DNA from: Eledone cirrhosa
Lineage: Eukaryota
Length of the DNA stretch: 64,000 bases
Direction: 5' to 3'
Assembly: GCA_964016885.1 (NCBI GenBank)
Contig: OZ024744.1
Coordinates: 59,954,001-60,018,000 of the forward strand
The notes beneath the pieces were generated by a model, which searched no databases, was not told the origin of the DNA, and worked only from the letters and a program-made list of their open reading frames with translations. The position numbers and the translations under genes are program-made. Numbering within the stretch: position 1 is the first letter of the stretch; each line of letters opens with the position of its first letter. Below, one piece after another: positions 4,104-34,699 of the stretch.

Positions 4104-6074
4104 TTTTCTCTTTCTCTTAATTTCGAGTATATTTTTGACCGGCCACCTTCCTGGTGGCAAGGTTGTAAAAGAAAAGAAATTGTCATCCCTTGAATCGCAA
4201 GAATGTTTTGCAAATTATGAAGGTGCCAGCTATCGCAGCCATTTGTAGACTATGAATTAGGGAGCTGCGCTTTTTGTCCGCAAATCCAAGTTCAGTCATA
4301 CTTTGGTCCAAGCGGGTTGGTATATAACCCGTAGCTCCAATAATGATGGGTATGAAGCTAAAGGTGTATCTTGGATACTGGATTTGTAAACTCCTCATCA
4401 ATGGTCCGTAGATGTCCTCCTTCTCCTGTATTTTTCTGACAACGTTTACATCAAGTGGGCAGCTGATCTCCACAACAGAACACGTTTTCAATGTGTGCTC
4501 CCAAACTACAATATCAGGCCGGTTGTGCTTTAATTTGGTGGCAGTTTTTATTTTCAGGTTCCACCAGTATTCCTTAGTGCCATCTGTCTCAATATATTCT
4601 TCCTCGTTTGTTGTTAATTTTGTTTTCCGAAGTTCGTTCCAGATGGTTCTAGCTATTCCATCGTGTCTCATGGGGAGGTAGTAGCGAGATGACATTCTTT
4701 CGCAGCTGGCAACAATGTGGCTTACATCCTCGATCTTTGTTTTACATAGCCTACATTTATTGTCAGCTGCTGGCCCTCCTCTTTTGTGCAGCAGATATTT
4801 GGTAGGGAGTTCTTGTTCCTGTATTACATAGAGATATCCCTCAAGGTGTGATATCATAAACTTGTCGGAACTCCATGCCAGGCTTTTTGAGTGGTTTATC
4901 CCCTCTATAGTCTGTGTTTTACGCCTCAAGTATCCATGCACAACTTTTTGTGTAAATTGGTCAATTTTTTTATCTTGTTTGAACATTGAATAGGATTTTC
5001 CGATTTCTCTGGGTGAGAGATTTATATCAGGCTTTATTCCATATCTCTCCTCCAGATCAGTCGCTATTCTAATGATATTTCTTTTTTCATGCTCATAAAC
5101 CTGGGCAAGATGGTTGCCAACCTTTTTCCTCTGTTGAAAGTGTTGCTTCAGTGTTACTATCCGGATCTCATATGTTGGTAATATTGATTTTAGACCCCGG
5201 CCACCTTCCTTGCGTGAGAAGTATAGCCTATCCACATCACCATTGATGTTAAAGTTCCCAGTAACACTGAGAAGTTTTCGAGTTCTAACATCCATCTCAC
5301 TTAGTTCTTGCAATGACCAGTTCAGTAGGCCAAATGTTGGCGTTAGAATTGGCACAGCATAAGTATTGTGGGCAATGTATTTGTTGTATGCTGACAGTTC
5401 TGATGACCATATTTTCTTTACTCTTCTGAGGTATTCAGTTCTGGTTCTCTCCTTATTTATGGGTCCATCATATCTGACATTCTCATCCTGTCCAAGATAT
5501 CTGTAGTTGTCACCTGACTGCAGAGGTTGTATTGTCAGGCCGTTTATCTCCAGATTTCTAGAGGAGGGCACAGCTCTTCCACGTTTTACTGCCAAATATG
5601 CACACTTGGACTCACCAAATTTCATTTGATGTCTGTTGAAAATTGTGTAATGAGGTCCAATTGTTTCTTGATGTCATTGATATTTGGCCCATACAACTTC
5701 AGGTCATCAACAAAGAAAAGATGGGAGATACTTCTGGGCCCACTTCTTTGTCCACCTTGTTTCCTGAGTAGGTAAGATAGTGGATTCACTGAGAGAACGA
5801 ATAGTATAACTGACAAGCTATCACCCTGAAAGATGCTCTTCTGGTAATGTATCTTATCAGTCTTAACCTGCTCCTTCTCACCTCTAAGGATCAAATTGGT
5901 GTACCAGTTCTTGGTCAGGCGTTCAACAGCAGCTACCAATGGTTGTGGGACTTTAGCTAACTGTAAAGCCTTAATAATCCACCCATGAGGTACACTATCG
6001 AATGCTTTTTGATAGTCCAGCCATACGACAGTCATGTTTCTGCGATTCTTTGTTGTTTTTTCCTGAATCATTTT
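4104..6074 (-). mobile_element. R4/Dong-clade non-LTR retrotransposon family A, copy 1 (5'-truncated; RT, CCHC, restriction-like endonuclease)
   Basis: RT motifs WLDYQKAFDSVPH, FQGDSLS, HLFFVDDLKLY; CRLC...HIVASC; RHD; RPDIVV...VEISCP; 3' UTR hairpin gccacc/ggtggc; both junctions in (TACA)n. Confidence 0.93.
4183..6074 (-). pseudogene. RT-RLE polyprotein C-terminal part, split by a 1-nt frameshift near 5625
   Basis: ORF 5622..6239 (RT from KMIQEK) and ORF 4183..5625 join at FSTDIK/MKFGESKC. Confidence 0.88.
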
Positions 6075-6212: not shown

Positions 6213-6665
6213 AAGGGCAAAGGAGCTCTTAAGAGTCAATGGCCATCCAAAATCACCGGGAGAGATGACCCCTTAGCCTTTGTCAAGGCAGAATTCTTGG
6301 AGAAGGAAAACTCTGATATAACACCTTCAACCCTAATGGTATCCAATGATGTTGACTTGTTCTTCTTTTTGGTAAATATCATCTTGGTTAAGAGAGTGGG
6401 ACTGGCTTTGTGCAGTGCCATTGCTCACTATAAAAGCTTCACGGCACAGGCATTGCTTTATATATGGAGATCTCTCTGCACTTGTCGTCACATGGTACCA
6501 TGGGCCCAGCACTATGTGTCAATAATTGTCCAAGTGTAGTGTTTATACCAGAGTTTTCAAGTCGCTGGCTGGACTAAAAAGTCACACTCGTTCAGCGCAT
6601 CGGTAGGGGTTCTCCTACATGGATATAAAATAGTGGCCGTACTCGAAAACGAGTTGGCAGCCACC
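6213..6665 (+). mobile_element. Non-autonomous bipartite RTE-derived element family 1, copy 1 (5'-truncated)
   Basis: RTE-type 5'UTR motif ggagaaggaaaactctga joined to an RTE-type 3' end (actcgaaaacgagt hairpin, gcagccacc), then an (ATGT)n tail. Confidence 0.8.
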
Positions 6666-6696
6666 ATGTATGTATGTATGTATGTATGTATGTATG

Positions 6697-6760: not shown

Positions 6761-7059
6761 TTTTCTCTTTCTCTTAATTTCGAGTATATTTTTTTGACCG
6801 GCCACCTTCCTGGTGGCAAGGTTGTAAAAGAAAAGAAATTGTCATCCCTTGAATCGCAAGAATGTTTTGCATATTTTGAAGGTGCCAGCTATCGCAGCCA
6901 TTTGTAGACTATGAATTAGGGAGCTGCGCTTTTTGTCCGCAAATCCAAGTTCGGTCATACTTTGGTCCAAGCGGGTTGGTATATAACCCGTAGCACCAAT
7001 AATGATGGGTATGAAGCTAAAGGTGTATCTTGGATACTGGATTTGTAAGCTCCTCATCA
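6761..7059 (-). mobile_element. R4/Dong family A, copy 2 (3' ~300 bp)
   Basis: Near-identical to 4104-4400; flanked by (TATG)n. Confidence 0.93.
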
Positions 7060-7310
7060 TATGTAAGTATATAAGTATGTATGTATGTATGTATGTATGT
7101 ATGTATGTATGTATGTGTGTGTGTATGTATGTATGTATGTATGTATGTGTGTATGTATGTGTGTGTGTATGTATGTATGTATGTATGTATGTGTGTATGT
7201 ATGTATGTATGTATGTATGTATGTATGTATGTATGTATGTATGTATGTGTGTATGTATGTGTGTGTGTATGTATGTATGTATGTATGTATGTGACCTGAC
7301 ATAGATATGT

Positions 7311-7914
7311 CTATGTCAGGTCACCAGTTGGTGCTACTGGTAACATGTATCCCAGTACAACCTGTCTCATGGTCGGGTCGTTGGCGACTAAACTGGCAAC
7401 CCCACCAAGGTTTCTTGGTGAGGAGGGTGACTTTGGACATCCTGCAGGACTAAAAACAAAACCTGTCAAAGGGCAAAGGAGCTCTTAAGAGTCAATGGCC
7501 ATCCAAAATCACCGGGAGAGATGACCCCTTAGCCTTTGTCAAGGCAGAATTCTAGGAGAAGGAAAACTCTGATATAACACCTGCAACCCTGATGGCATCC
7601 AATGATGTTGACTTGTTCTTCTTTTTGGTAAATATCATCTTGGTTAAGAGAGTGGGACTGGCTTTGTGCAGTGCCTTTGCTCACTATAAAAGCTTCACGG
7701 CACAGGCATTGCTTTATATCTGGAGATCTCTCTGCACTTGTCCTCACATGGGCCCAGCACTATGTGTCAATGGTTGTCACAGGTGTAGTGTTTGTACCAG
7801 AGGTTTCAAGTCGCTGGCTGGACTAAAAAGTCACACTCGTTCAGCGCTTCGGTAGGGGTTATCCTACATGGATGTAAAGTAGTGGCCGTACTCGAAAACG
7901 AGTTGGCAGCCACC
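7311..7914 (+). mobile_element. Bipartite RTE-derived element family 1, copy 2 (full length)
   Basis: ctatgtcaggtcacc...gcagccacc; encodes remnant [19 protein letters not shown], resembling the zinc-finger-like C-terminus of RTE-BovB-type ORFs. Confidence 0.85.
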
Positions 7915-7919
7915 ATGTA

Positions 7920-7955
<36 letters not shown>

Positions 7956-10150: not shown

Positions 10151-10189
10151 GTTCGCAGGCCGTGCGGCGGCGTTTCGATTCGGCCGTCA

Positions 10190-10829
10190 CTATGTCAGGT
10201 CACCAGTTGGTGCTACTGGTAACATGTATCCCAGTACAACCTGTCTCATGGTCGGGTCGTTGGCGACTAAACTGGCAACCCCACCAAGGTTTCTTGGTGA
10301 GGAGGGTGACTTTGGACATCCTGTAGGACTAAAAACAAAACCTGTCAAAGGGCAAAGGAGCTCTTAAGAGTCAATGGCCATCCAAAATCACCGGGAGAGA
10401 TGACCCCTTAGCCTTTGTCAAGGCAGAATTCTAGGAGAAGGAAAACTCTGATATAACACCTGCAACCCTGATGGTATCCAATGATGTTGACTTGTTCTTC
10501 TTTTTGGTAAATATCATCTTGGTTAAGAGAGTGGGACTGGCCTTGTGCAGTGCCTTTGCTCACTATAAAAGCTTCACGGCACAGGCATTGCTTTATATCT
10601 GGAGATCTCTCTGCACATGTCCTCACATGGGCCCAGCACTATGTGTCAATGGTTGTCCTACCATGGGCCCAGCACTATGTGTCAATGGTTGTCACAGGTG
10701 TAGTGTTTGTACCAGAGGTTTCAAGTCGCTGGCTGGACTAAAAAGTCACACTCGTTCAGCGCTTCGGTAGGGGTTATCCTACATGGATGTAAAGTAGTGG
10801 CCGTACTCGAAAACGAGTTGGCAGCCACC
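10190..10829 (+). mobile_element. Bipartite RTE-derived element family 1, copy 3 (internal ~35 bp tandem duplication)
   Basis: Near-identical to copy 2; catgggcccagcactatgtgtcaatggttgtc occurs twice (about 10627 and 10662). Confidence 0.85.
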
Positions 10830-11012
10830 ATGTATGTATGTATGTGTGTATGTATGTATGTATGTATGTATGTATGTATGTATGTATGTATGTATGTATG
10901 TATGTATGTGTGTAGATATGTATGTATGTATGTGTGTATGTAGGTATGTATGTATGTATGTATGTATGTATGTATGTAGGTATGTATGTATGTGTGTATG
11001 TATGTATGTATG

Positions 11013-11995
11013 TTTTCTCTTTCTCTTAATTTTGAGTATATTTTTTGACCGGCCACCTTCCTGGTGGCAAGGTTGTAAAAGAAAAGAAATTGTCATCCCT
11101 TGAATCGCAAGAATGTTTTGCAAATTTTGAAGGTGCCAGCTATCGCAGCCATTTGTAGACTATGAATTAGGGAGCTGCGCTTTTTGTCCGCAAATCCAAG
11201 TTCAGTCATACTTTGGTCCAAGCGGGTTGGTATATAACCCGTAGCACCAATAATGATGGGTATGAAGCTAAAGGTGTATCTTGGATACTGGATTTGTAAA
11301 CTCCTCATCAATGGTCCGTAGATATCCTCCTTCTCCTGTATTTTTCTGACAACGTTTACATCAAGTGGGCAGCTGATCTCCACAACAGAACACGTTTTCA
11401 ATGTGTGCTCCCAAACTACAATATCAGGCCGGTTGTGCTTTAATTTGGTGGCAGTTTTTATTTTCAGGTTCCACCAGTATTCCTTAGTGCCATCTGTCTC
11501 AATATATTCTTCCTCGTTTGTTGTTGATTTTGTTTTCCGAAGTGCGTTCCAGATGGTTCTAGCTATCCCATCGTGTCTCATGGGGAGGTGGTAGCGAGAT
11601 GACATTCTTTCGCAGCTGGCAACAATGTGGCTTACATCCTCGATCTTTGTTTTACATAGCCTACATTTATTGTCAGCTGCTGGCCCTCCTCTTTTGTGCA
11701 GCAGATATTTGGTAGGGAGTTCTTGTTCCTGTATTGCATAGAGATATCCCTCAAGGTGTGATGTCATAAACTTGTCGGAACTCCACGCCAGGCTTTTTGA
11801 GTGGTTTATCCCCTCTATGGTCTGTGTTTTACGCCTCAAGTATCCATGCACAACTTTTTCTGTAAATTGGTCAATTTTTTTTTCTTGTTTGAACATTGAA
11901 TAGGATCTTCCGATTTCTCTGGGTGAGAGATTTATATCGGGCTTTATTCCATATCTCTCCTCCAGATCAGTCGCTATTCTAATGATATTTCTTTT
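11013..11995 (-). mobile_element. R4/Dong family A, copy 3 (3' ~1 kb, intact CCHC plus RLE frame 11093..11896)
   Basis: 267 aa ORF nearly identical to copy 1; both ends in (TATG)n. Confidence 0.93.
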
Positions 11996-12888: not shown

Positions 12889-13388
12889 TTTTTTCTTTCT
12901 CTTAATTTCGAGTATATTTTTTTGACTGGCCACCTTCCTGGTGGCAAGGTTGTAAAAGAAAAGAAATTGTCATCCCTTGAATCGCAAGAATGTTTTGCAT
13001 ATTTTGAAGGTGCCAGCTATCGCAGCCATTTGTAGACTATGAATTAGGGAGCTGCGCTTTTTGTCCGCAAATCCAAGTTCGGTCATACTTTGGTCCAAGC
13101 GGGTTGGTATATAACCCGTAGCTCCAATAATGATGGGTATGAAGCTAAAGGTGTATCTTGGATACTGGATTTGTAAACTCCTCATCAATGGTCCGTAGAT
13201 GTCCTCCTTCTCCTGTATTTTTCTGACAACGTTTACATCAAGTGGGCAGCTGATCTCCACAACAGAACACGTTTTCAATGTGTGCTCCCAAACTACAATA
13301 TCAGGCCGGTTGTGCTTTAATTTGGTGGCAGTTTTTATTTTCAGGTTCCACCAGTATTCCTTAGTGCCATCTGTCTCAATATATTCTT
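12889..13388 (-). mobile_element. R4/Dong family A, copy 4 (3' ~500 bp)
   Basis: Near-identical 3' end; flanked by (TATG)n. Confidence 0.93.
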
Positions 13389-15031: not shown

Positions 15032-15642
15032 TATGTCAGGTCACCAGTTGGTGCTACTGGTAACATGTATCCCAGTACAACCTGTCCCATGGTCGGGTCG
15101 TTGGCGACTAAACTGGCAACCCCACCAAGGTTTCTTGGTGAGGAGGGTGACTTTGGACATCCTGCAGGACTAAAAACAAAACCTGTCAAAAGGCAAAGGA
15201 GCTCTTAAGAGTCAATGGCCATCCAAAATCACCGGGAGAGATGACCCCTTAGCCTTTGTCAAGGCAGAATTCTAGGAGAAGGAAAACTCTGATATAACAC
15301 CTGCAACTCTGATGGTATCCAATGATGTTGACTTGTTCTTCTTTTTGGTAAATATCATCTTGGTTAAGAGAGTGGGACTGGCTTTGTGCAGTGCCTTTGC
15401 TCACTATAAAAGCTTCACGGCACAGGCATTGCTTTATATCTGGAGATCTCTCTGCACTTGTCGTCACAGGGTACCATGGCCCCAGCACTATGTGTCAATA
15501 TTTGTCACAAGTGTAGTGTTTGTACCAGAGTTTTCAAGTCGCTGGCTGGACTAAAAGGTCACACTCGTTCATTGCATCGGTAGGGGTTCTCCTATATGGA
15601 TATAAAGTAGTGGCCGTACTCGAAAACGAGTTGGCAGCCACC
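15032..15642 (+). mobile_element. Bipartite RTE-derived element family 1, copy 4 (full length), tail to 15978
   Basis: Near-identical to copies 1-3. Confidence 0.85.
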
Positions 15643-16245
15643 ATGTATGTATGTGTGTATGTATGTATGTATGTACGTATGTATGTATGTATGTAGGTAT
15701 GTATGTATGTATGTGTGTATGTATGTATGTATGTATGTATGTATGTATGTATGTATGTATGTATGTATGTATGTATGTGTGTATGTGTGTATGTATGTAT
15801 GTGTGTATGTATGTATGTATGTATGTATGTATGTATGTATGTGTGTATGTATGTGTGTATGTATGTATGTATGTATGTGTGTATGTATGTGTGTATGTAT
15901 GTATGTGTGTATGTATGTGTGTATGTATGCATGTATGTATGTGTGTATGTATGTGTGTATGTATGTGTGTATGTATGTAGGTGATGAGGGAAGGAGTGAG
16001 GCATAAGGGAGAAGGCCTACGGCGATGATATGTGATGAAACATGGGATAGTGTTTAATATAAAATCGTGTAACGCCTATGTGTGTATATGTGTGAGTGTA
16101 TATATGTATATGTGTGTATATATGTATGTGTGTGTGTATGTATATATGTATGTATTTATGTCCATGGATATATTTGCATATTTGTATATGTAGAATTATA
16201 TATATCATACACATATACATATTTATTTAAACAGATATATAGACG

Positions 16246-28960: not shown

Positions 28961-29231
28961 AATCTCTACTGTCCCTAAGACCTCAGCGCCACCTGGGGGG
29001 GGGGGGGGGGGTTAGCACCCACTTTCAAAACCTCTGTCCTACACTGATATCCTAACAAGAATTAGAGGTCTCTCACTCCCGATAGTCTAACCGCGCGCTC
29101 GGCACCAAACTGTGTATGTGCATGTCTCCATACACACATACACACATACATACATACATACATACACACATACATACATACATACATACATACATACATA
29201 CATACATACATACATACATACATACATACAT

Positions 29232-29410
29232 GGTGGCTGCCAACTCGTTTTCGAGTACGGCCACTACTTTATATCCATGTAGGAGAACCCCTACCGATGC
29301 GCTGAACGAGTGTGACGTTTTAGTCCAGCCAGCGACTTGAAAACTCTGGTACAAACACTACACTTGTGACAATTATTGACATATAGTGCTTTGCCTTTGG
29401 TACCATGTGA
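29232..29410 (-). mobile_element. Bipartite RTE-derived element family 1, 3' fragment
   Basis: Reverse complement of ~15465-15642; (CATA)n on both sides. Confidence 0.88.
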
Positions 29411-30330: not shown

Positions 30331-30917
30331 GTACAACCTATCGCATGGTCGGGTCGTCGGCGACTAAACCGGCAACCCCGCCAAGTTTACTTGGTGAGGA
30401 GGGCGATTTTGGACACCCTGCAGGACAAAAAACAAAACCTGACAAAGGGCGGAAGAACTCATAAGAGTCAACGGCCACCCAAAAGTGTGTAAATATGTAT
30501 ATACACATGTACATATGTATGTATATGTATAAGTGTATATACATGGGTGCATGTGTATGTATATACGCGGAGATATAGAAATCTTGGGTTGGACACCGGA
30601 TCGCGCTGTTAAACCACTGGGAGTGAAGGACCCCTAGCCTTCGTCACGGCATTCTTCTAGAAGGCAACTCAGGAAACTGGGATAACTCCGATATAAAACC
30701 TGGGGCTCAGTAGTTATCGATGATATTGATCTTTTCTTCTTTCCCGGTTATAGCTACTGTCGCTCAGAGTGGGATTGGCTCAGTGCACAGTCTTTCCTCA
30801 CTTTAAAAAATATCTTCATGCACAGGCATTGCACGATAGAATTAATAAATAATTATTCATAATGGTATAATGTGCAATGGCCATACCCGATAATGAGGGG
30901 GCAGCCATCATCATCAT
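30331..30917 (+). mobile_element. Bipartite RTE-derived element family 2
   Basis: Diverged homolog of the family 1 leader; ends gagggggcagccatcatcatc then (TATG)n; preceded by (TATG)n. Confidence 0.75.
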
Positions 30918-32139: not shown

Positions 32140-32544
32140 GTTTGGGACCACACATTGAAAACGTGTTCTGTTGTGGAGATCAGCTGCCCACTTGATGTAA
32201 ACGTTGTCGGAGAAATACAGGAGAAGGAGGACATCTACGGACCATTGATGAGGAGTTTACAAATCCAGTATCCAAGATACACCTTTAGCTTCATACCCAT
32301 CATTATTGGTGCAACGGGTTATATACCAACCCGCTTGGACCAAAGTATGACTGAACTTGGATTTGCGGACAAAAAGCGCAGCTCCCTAATTCATAGTCTG
32401 CAAATGGCTGCGATAGCTGGCACCTTCAAAATTTGCAAAACATTCTTGTGATTCAAGGGATGACAATTTCTTTTCTTTTACAACCTTGCCACCAGGAAGG
32501 TGGCCGGTCAAAAAAATATACTCGAAATTAAGAGAAAGAGAAAA
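32138..32544 (+). mobile_element. R4/Dong family A, copy 5 (3' fragment)
   Basis: KTCSVVEISCP...KICKTFL; (CATA)n on both sides. Confidence 0.93.
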
Positions 32545-33397: not shown

Positions 33398-33480
<83 letters not shown>

Positions 33481-33483
<3 letters not shown>

Positions 33484-33972
33484 ACGTCGCTCTACGGCGT
33501 TACTGGTAACATGTAACCGAGTACAATCCGTTCATGGTCAGGTCGTCGGCGACTAAATCAGAAACGCCACCCAGTTTGCTTGGTGGGGAGGAGGATTTTG
33601 GACAACCTGCAGGATGGAAAATGAGACCCGTCAAAGGGTGAAGGAACTCATGAGAGTTAACAGCCATCCAATAATTTTTTTTTGTGTGCTTCGAGAGACC
33701 CCCTAGTCTTCATTAAGACATCTCTACAGGTGAAGGTCATACTAATATAAAACCTACGACTTGGTTTGTATCCACTGATGTAGACTAGTTTTATTTTTGG
33801 GGTAAATTCGATGTTCAGAGAGTGGGATTGGCCCCGTGCAAAACCATTCCTCACTTAAACAAGCTTCAAGAACGGGCATTGCTTGATAAATAACATTGCT
33901 GGCCATGGGGAAGTTCCTGGCGGGACTAAAAAGCCACGTCCATTTTGTTCATATAAATCGAGTTGCAGCCAT
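33481..33972 (+). mobile_element. Bipartite RTE-derived element family 3
   Basis: Homologous leader; 3' end gcgggactaaaaagccac...cgagttgcagccatc; preceded by (TG)n. Confidence 0.72.
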
Positions 33973-34699
33973 CATATATATATTTTATTTTTTTCCGAGG
34001 TTTTTGATATGAAATCGTGTGTCGAAACAAATATTGTTATACTTGGGGAGGGTCATATTTGTGTAATAATATTGCCAGAATTAATAACAGAACACACTCA
34101 CTGTTTGGTTGGTTTTCGCTTCAGTATCTTTTATATCTCCACAGTTAATTCATTCGGTCCTCAATGTTTACCATTGACTGACCAACGGTCAAAAATACAG
34201 ATATAATATAGATATAAACACATATATATAGTCTAACAAAGTTCTTTCGTTGCACATCTGCAACATCATCAGTGGTACTATTATGTTCCTCCTGTTGTAT
34301 TGAATATCTACGCCATTTTTATTTTATCTGTTTATTTATTTATTTATTTATTTTTGTCTTCTCTGCGAATGCGTTTGCGTGTGTGTATAGTGTTTGGTGT
34401 ATGTTCGCGTTTGGGTGACTGTGTTTTGGTTATTGTATTCTATCTTAGTTTACTAGTGTGTGATTATATGTGTTTGTTGTTATTGTGCTTGTGTATATAT
34501 TCATTTATTTATTTATATTTCTCTTAAGTCAGTATTGTTTGTTTGGGTGTTGTTTATATTCCATTCATTTTTTCTGTTTAGCTTTGGCCTTCTAAGCTCT
34601 ATTTCTCTGGCCTCTCTGATTTGCCTACCTGCTGGGTCATTTCTATGTTCAGATGAACTGGGCCTCCTTCTTAGACTTACCTAAGACACCGACTACCTA

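Follow-up and report, generated by a model that had tools for sequence, protein, structure and literature searches.

Subclass-1a xrRNAs of flaviviruses are characterised by a three-way junction, PK1, PK2, a U-A-U triple and a discriminator C (PMC8374639, PMC7527734), and Xrn1 halts 5-6 nt before P1 of the viral xrRNA (PMC5760640). At the junction of xrRNAs from mosquito-borne flaviviruses only C-G pairs are found (PMC13161572). Putative xrRNAs have been reported from marine invertebrate flaviviruses as well, and cases missed by Rfam have been noted (PMC8128465). As of 2021 xrRNAs had been characterised in viruses only, and their discovery in eukaryotic genomes was named as an open question (PMC8374639). 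A 2025 paper (PMC12397905) yielded no passage on transposons, and searches of mostly open-access literature turned up no retrotransposon for which an xrRNA had been described. Some LINEs carry HDV-like ribozymes at their 5' ends, which are thought to free the element from a co-transcript and to give it exonuclease resistance (PMC5786205, PMC12222951).

The window, by which we mean the whole 64,000-nucleotide stretch of Eledone cirrhosa DNA that was analysed, is microsatellite-rich animal DNA crowded with retroelement fragments. The following copies and fragments of four element families were located in it.

7312..7915, + strand: family 1 copy a, a full-length, non-coding, RTE-derived element of ~600 nt, then a (TATG)n tail
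10191..10830, + strand: family 1 copy b, full-length, xrRNA-like unit at 10191-10250
15032..15643, + strand: family 1 copy c, full-length, xrRNA-like unit at 15032-15091
6213..6666, + strand: family 1 copy, 5'-truncated and without the leader
29231..29408, - strand: family 1 3' fragment
30331..30485, + strand: family 2 copy, 5'-truncated inside the xrRNA-like unit
33479..33975, + strand: family 3 copy, xrRNA-like unit at 33479-33538, partly decayed, with compensatory change in P2
53478..53657, - strand: family 4 copy, with a decayed xrRNA-like unit and an internal deletion

In two sequencing runs from a single organism code, family 1 reached a very high summed depth. No RT-bearing element of the window was matched by the 3' tails of families 1-3. 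Another LINE family, a young one (RT with zf-RVT), is represented by 3' ends, 97-99% alike, at 4104-5084, 6761-7059, 11013-11994, 12889-13387 and 32140-32544; they occupy the same (TATG)n tracts, several of them beside family 1 copies, which suggests a common target.

At the 5' end of copy a, Rfam, the minimum free energy (MFE) fold and a structural descriptor converged on one 60-nt unit, and the descriptor passed all of the full-length family 1 copies (3/3). Its predicted parts are as follows.

7312..7371, + strand: xrRNA-like unit of family 1 copy a
7317-7321 with 7360-7364: P1, 5 bp
7322-7325 with 7330-7333: P2
7334: junction C, between P2 and P3
7335-7340 with 7352-7357: P3
U7314-A7359 and G7315-C7358: PK1
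7344-7347 with 7368-7371: PK2, the L3 pseudoknot

We also take U7316 to join A7336-U7356 in a base triple (U7316.A7336-U7356); all three nucleotides are present, and invariant in the retroelements, an invariance that by itself proves no contact. The P1-P2-P3 junction is the MFE structure of 7312-7375 folded in isolation, and the folding energy of this segment is not better than that of shuffled sequences (z -0.25).

Comparison with Rfam, which the first-pass annotation of this DNA had left to be done, gave no match in the whole window at the gathering score; ARAGORN likewise returned no genes in the window. At a relaxed threshold, and setting aside microsatellite-driven miRNA matches, the top Rfam match was Flavivirus_SLIV, which aligned over the full model to 7310-7381 with 26.5 bits (E 0.031 with 701 nt searched, 0.0042 with 96 nt searched), below the gathering score of 54.5. 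This sub-threshold match begins 20 nt upstream of 7330, the position at which the first-pass annotation had started the conserved leader. That start proved to be 18 nt late: the 5' unit begins at ~7312 and forms a different three-way junction from the one that had been described, and most of the structured unit with the best support is located 5' of 7330.

Relatives outside the window were sought with an anchor lying 3' of the unit. Of the 60 metagenome loci obtained, 8 were relatives and 52 were dropped by eye as unrelated; the relatives were drawn from few samples, L050, L055 and L064 came from one assembly, and several are decayed single copies. The unit was carried by all six relatives with an intact 5' end (6/6), the other two being cut short, and it forms the extreme 5' end of these RTE-type LINE relatives. 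Anchor scans of viral contigs gave no matches. An APE-type endonuclease ORF lies downstream of the leader in L055 and L087, with the endonuclease domain ~600-750 nt past the anchor and no long ORF ahead of the domain. We tentatively assign these two LINEs to the RTE clade from their N-terminal motifs. L087 contains a decayed autonomous LINE, and over 192 nt family 1 is 78.6% identical to the 5' UTR of that LINE (E 1e-37); it is the first 192 nt of family 1 that share homology with the 5' terminus of a LINE encoding an endonuclease. The pattern occupies the extreme 5' position of its elements, ahead of the endonuclease ORF. These results bear out the first-pass view that RTE-type retroelements share a conserved leader with RNA structure at the 5' end, a leader that extends to the L087 5' UTR, and the four stretches it had grouped are indeed homologous, with 79-88% identity to the 7330-7515 copy.

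Several further features were seen at element 5' ends. A tandem 5-nt unit, GTCAG, is present in 2-4 copies in L050 (906-925), L055 (1226-1250) and L087, possibly from slippage in 5' joining; as a result of these repeats the P1 and P2 arms are alike and two registers are allowed. In L071 and L079 a tRNA-like B-box stretch lies ~100 nt upstream of the unit, and these loci may represent either a tRNA-headed SINE fused to an RTE 5' end or a SINE that received an insertion. Another endonuclease-bearing LINE relic seems by eye to be headed, at window 53240-53190 (- strand), by an xrRNA-like unit that may be decayed; the covariance model R1 (described below) gave no match there at E<=2, and the endonuclease match of that relic is at 52630-52373.

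The three full-length family 1 copies share sequence from 7312, 5 nt before P1, and in copy b the common 5' start comes after non-microsatellite DNA; the (TATG)n target overlaps this boundary, which in microsatellite flanks can be placed only to within 5 nt. Such a boundary, 5 nt ahead of P1, agrees with the published halt distance of Xrn1. Two other observations were made at these junctions. An inverted duplicate of the first ~16 nt of copy a lies directly upstream of it (window 7291-7324, a fold-back at the 5' junction), and a GC-rich stretch of ~39 nt (window 10152-10190) separates the microsatellite from the 5' end of copy b and may stem from a template switch or be a 5' extension that escaped trimming.

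We consider it probable that the unit folds into a ring that blocks 5'-to-3' exoribonucleases, and RTE-type elements likely rely on it for protection or trimming at the 5' start of their RNA, a reading drawn from sequence comparison. We infer the three-dimensional fold, the nuclease block and the following route. The element would be transcribed within longer host RNAs by read-through; after decapping or cleavage, Xrn1 (or Xrn2) would trim the RNA back to the block. Trimming to the block would leave a unit-length template, the task that has been assigned to the HDV-like 5' ribozymes of other LINEs (PMC5786205, PMC12222951).

The main alternative keeps a working xrRNA and has it only stabilise RNA that an internal promoter starts at the element 5' end, with no excision. 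It is a variant of the trimming explanation with which it has most of the evidence in common, and the present data do not separate the two; we regard it as possible and somewhat doubtful. The strongly conserved 140 nt downstream of the unit could hold promoter elements, and a regulatory function has been invoked for the conservation of RTE 5' UTRs (PMC5786205). Yet a promoter start at exactly the Xrn1 halt distance would be an added coincidence, which trimming explains directly.

Conservation and some structure mark those downstream 140 nt, for which a promoter or protein-binding role is a guess. Three features were placed in or next to them.

7372..7397, + strand: P4-like hairpin after PK2 (gtcg-loop-cgac, possibly extended)
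7403..7420, + strand: variable-length hairpin ccacca/tggtg, kept in 9 sequences with one- and two-sided changes
7434..7505, + strand: the three-way junction of the first-pass annotation (here a second domain), weakly supported

The pairs of the P4-like hairpin are kept in most of the 9 sequences, where RNAalifold prefers another register; since the stretch is nearly invariant and served as the search anchor, it yields no covariation. The first-pass annotation had listed three small hairpins as common to all four families. The gtcg/cgac and ccacca/tggtg hairpins do occur in all four (family 4 decayed), whereas tactgg/ccagta is missing in family 2 (5'-truncated at 30331) and damaged in family 4. 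For the second junction, compensatory changes were seen once in the closing core (L047) and once in the cagg/cctg stem (L055, L064), which lends some weight to the three-way junction proposed at 7434-7505; against it, RNAalifold on 9 sequences did not recover the closing stem (covariation term +1), and the pair probability of that stem averaged 0.21 for family 1 and 0.0 for the 8 other folded sequences. As had been written, the closing stem forms 11 of 12 pairs in family 1, but its outer part is confined to that family and only a 4-bp core is common. The aggg arm, thought to be present throughout, has been removed from family 4 by the deletion, and the cggaaga linker is, among the four, found in family 2 only, as had been noted.

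A second alternative is that the likeness to xrRNAs reflects structural convergence or is a relic, the fold serving protein binding, translation initiation or template recognition with no nuclease block. We consider this unlikely. It draws on three departures from the viral class. The junction-closing pairs of P1 and P3 are U-A in every intact retroelement unit; among 16 flavivirus-sized contigs (defined below) U-A closed P1 in none (0/16) and P3 in one (1/16), the latter also being found in the viral loci L007, L008 and L027. Having U-A instead of C-G at these two pairs could weaken resistance. Secondly, the Rfam score is under threshold, and the Rfam xrRNA families had no match at E<=5 in 5 metagenome relatives. 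Thirdly, the predicted P1 of the metagenome copies is weak: in pseudoknot-free folding the P1 pair probability was 0.89 in family 1, and it exceeded 0.5 in 0/5 metagenome relatives versus 9/16 flaviviral controls. Pseudoknot-free folding with long flanks was discarded, as genuine viral xrRNAs fail it too (P1 >0.5 in 1/16).

Against convergence or a relic stand the position of the unit at the 5' extremity, where a nuclease block would act, and the inclusion in the match of tertiary-contact positions (both PK1 pairs, the junction C and the PK2 register), one of which shows a compensatory change. Family 1, family 4 and every intact relative (6/6) have a C between P2 and P3; the decayed family 3 copy has U there. 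PK2 comprises 3-6 Watson-Crick pairs in the retroelements and lies in the viral register (loop position 3; 2-3 nt after P1), with a two-sided change between families, CAUG/CAUG versus CCUG/CAGG. The G-C pair of PK1 is invariant in 5/5 retroelement sequences. Across 7 retroelement sequences the second PK1 pair is U-A in family 1, family 3 and L050, G-C in L055 and L064, G-U in L087 and U-U in L071; the reading for L050 and L055 uses the outer of the two registers, the one with the longer P2. P2, PK2 and the second PK1 pair are all broken in L071 and L079.

The leader unit is conserved, with compensatory changes in P2, PK1 and PK2. Pair counts on 5 sequences, a set too small for a formal test, showed 92.6% of cells paired and 3 pairs changed on both sides; P1 and P3 are nearly invariant among these 5 retroelement sequences and so offer no covariation of their own. 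In sequencing run X2 three further P2 variants were found, all paired and all opening with the identical 5' motif after a variable flank. The variants listed for that run at a frequency of at least 1% fell at 7351, 7366, 7367 (three letters) and 7374, and all 6 were unpaired or pair-keeping. One record of run X4 (record 12, depth 147, other organism code) has a unit with a far longer P2, the base of which is still paired.

An uncatalogued or divergent self-cleaving ribozyme (HDV-like, twister or hammerhead), the reading that the first-pass annotation had entertained, is very improbable for the leader. In its favour an invariant ACTAA follows a hairpin, which we take to resemble the HDV J4/2 strand. 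The Rfam results go against it: ribozyme families were absent from the 19 matches at E<=10 over 7250-7950 and from the matches at E<=5 in 5 relatives. A relaxed descriptor for HDV-like ribozymes matched the family 1 copies only and 0/7 other sequences (it was thus absent in 7/10), compared with 8/30 shuffles, which is a background rate, and the HDV-like candidate was rejected. The hammerhead core (CUGANGA/GAAA) was found in 1/10 sequences, where a deletion had made it, so that this candidate was also rejected, in line with the earlier statement that the junction is not a canonical hammerhead. For twister, compared through Rfam alone, the Rfam twister models gave no match at E<=10.

The unit was compared with flavivirus xrRNAs in two ways. 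A degenerate core pattern retrieved 30 viral loci, of which 16 were contigs of 10.5-11.1 kb in which the match lay close to the 3' end (the flavivirus-sized contigs). Rfam xrRNA families mark 8/16 of the flavivirus-sized pattern sites, which indicates that the pattern catches real xrRNAs and that Rfam misses many. A structure filter, consisting of P2, P3 and a Watson-Crick PK2, was passed by family 1 (3/3), by 4/6 relatives (L071 and L079 failing), by 9/16 flavivirus-sized contigs and by 1/14 of the other viral matches, and by 0/54 prokaryotic matches to the retroelement-style pattern, which served as controls. The second PK1 pair, which is in no search pattern, was Watson-Crick at 20/21 flaviviral sites versus 15/54 controls. 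The full descriptor, written after the Rfam match, had 0 occurrences in 150 Mb of random sequence.

The second comparison was reciprocal. The covariance model R1 was built from five retroelement sequences only, family 3 among them, using alignment A5, which places L050 and L055 in the inner register, whereas the analysis of the second PK1 pair favours the outer for both; the MAFFT alignments A2 and A4 misregistered P1. The test set comprised 12 of 23 flavivirus 3' UTR loci chosen by an unrelated motif, the other 11 being left out for sharing records with the viral loci of the core pattern. R1 gave 11 matches at E<=0.01 in 8 of the 12 loci, all on the sense strand, and none in the remaining 4; 9 of the 11 matches coincided with Rfam SLIV sites, and 9/10 SLIV sites were recovered. 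The family 4 copy, which is outside the training set, scored 17.4 bits (E 0.012). On pattern-selected loci R1 did not discriminate: 4/54 prokaryotic controls matched at E<=0.01, with up to 32 bits, and the informative sites are for this reason those that were not chosen by the pattern. The control that reached 32 bits (L118) was considered as an xrRNA and rejected as chance, having no PK2.

Some short environmental viral contigs (1.2-4.3 kb) also hold subclass-1a-like patterns, namely L007 (400-452), L008 (400-472 and 747-799), L027 and L010, and the viruses concerned may fall outside Flaviviridae. L007 had the top R1 score among the 30 viral loci (31.2 bits), and three ORFs near L007 and L008 had no Pfam match.

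That the four stretches are alike by descent alone, with the xrRNA likeness a chance product of a short GC-rich motif, could be argued from the homology of all the retroelement sequences, the small sample and a descriptor composed after the fact, but the empty controls and random sequence, the reciprocal recovery of viral sites by R1 and the compensatory changes in P2, PK1 and PK2 make it extremely unlikely.

The preferred reading remains an exonuclease block at the element 5' end, and it allows a broader proposal, which we put forward tentatively and consider rather less than probable: an RTE LINE lineage and its short derivatives, in several animals, would obtain mature RNA through a host 5'-to-3' exonuclease that cuts back read-through RNA as far as an xrRNA carried by the element. 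Such units would form the first family of cellular xrRNAs, with ancestry shared with the flavivirus subclass-1a xrRNAs through exchange between retrotransposons and invertebrate RNA viruses. Descent from a common source and convergence with flaviviruses would both accommodate the identity at unpaired and tertiary positions. Whatever its origin, the unit is a concrete, high-copy, 60-nt candidate xrRNA outside viruses and is fit for one standard assay. If it acts as proposed, non-LTR retrotransposons would have a third way to set their 5' end, beside internal promoters and self-cleaving ribozymes; the exact 5' terminus kept in short derivatives would be explained; and the question of descent or convergence would be raised for flaviviruses and retrotransposons. 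The numerous chromosomal copies could yield Xrn1-resistant RNA fragments in host cells.

Among known systems, the twister variants of Schistosoma non-LTR elements (PMC8501958) resemble the present case in tying an RNA motif to end processing; they differ in fold, and no twister appeared in the Rfam scans. Bipartite non-autonomous RTE elements (Kojima 2018, PMC5786205) are, like family 1, short and non-coding, with the 5' end of an RTE LINE and a microsatellite tail. Unlike here, no xrRNA is described for them in the available portion of that paper, and the link of family 1 to RTE covers the 5' part. The HDV-like ribozymes of R2, RTE and Ingi LINEs (PMC5786205, PMC12222951) are likewise structured RNAs at the extreme 5' end that are kept in non-autonomous derivatives. 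The present unit has no conserved HDV fold or catalytic core, and its end would come from host exonuclease and not from self-cleavage.

Closest of all is the subclass-1a flavivirus xrRNA (RF01415 Flavivirus_SLIV, RF03547 Flavi_xrRNA; PMC8374639, PMC7527734, PMC5760640, PMC13161572, PMC4829329). With it the unit shares a three-way junction, a 5-bp P1, the variability of P2, a C separating P2 from P3, two PK1 pairs, an L3 pseudoknot of identical register, a P4-like hairpin downstream and the core nucleotides. The candidate differs in having U-A for C-G at the two junction-closing pairs. We regard it as a likely xrRNA, a variant and not a proven member of the subclass, that fits the tested sequence features except in three respects: its junction is not all C-G, its Rfam score is below threshold, and its location is another. 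Viral xrRNAs lie in the 3' UTR, whereas this unit is at the 5' extremity of a chromosomal retroelement; and where the viral structure makes a subgenomic RNA, the retroelement unit would protect the whole element.
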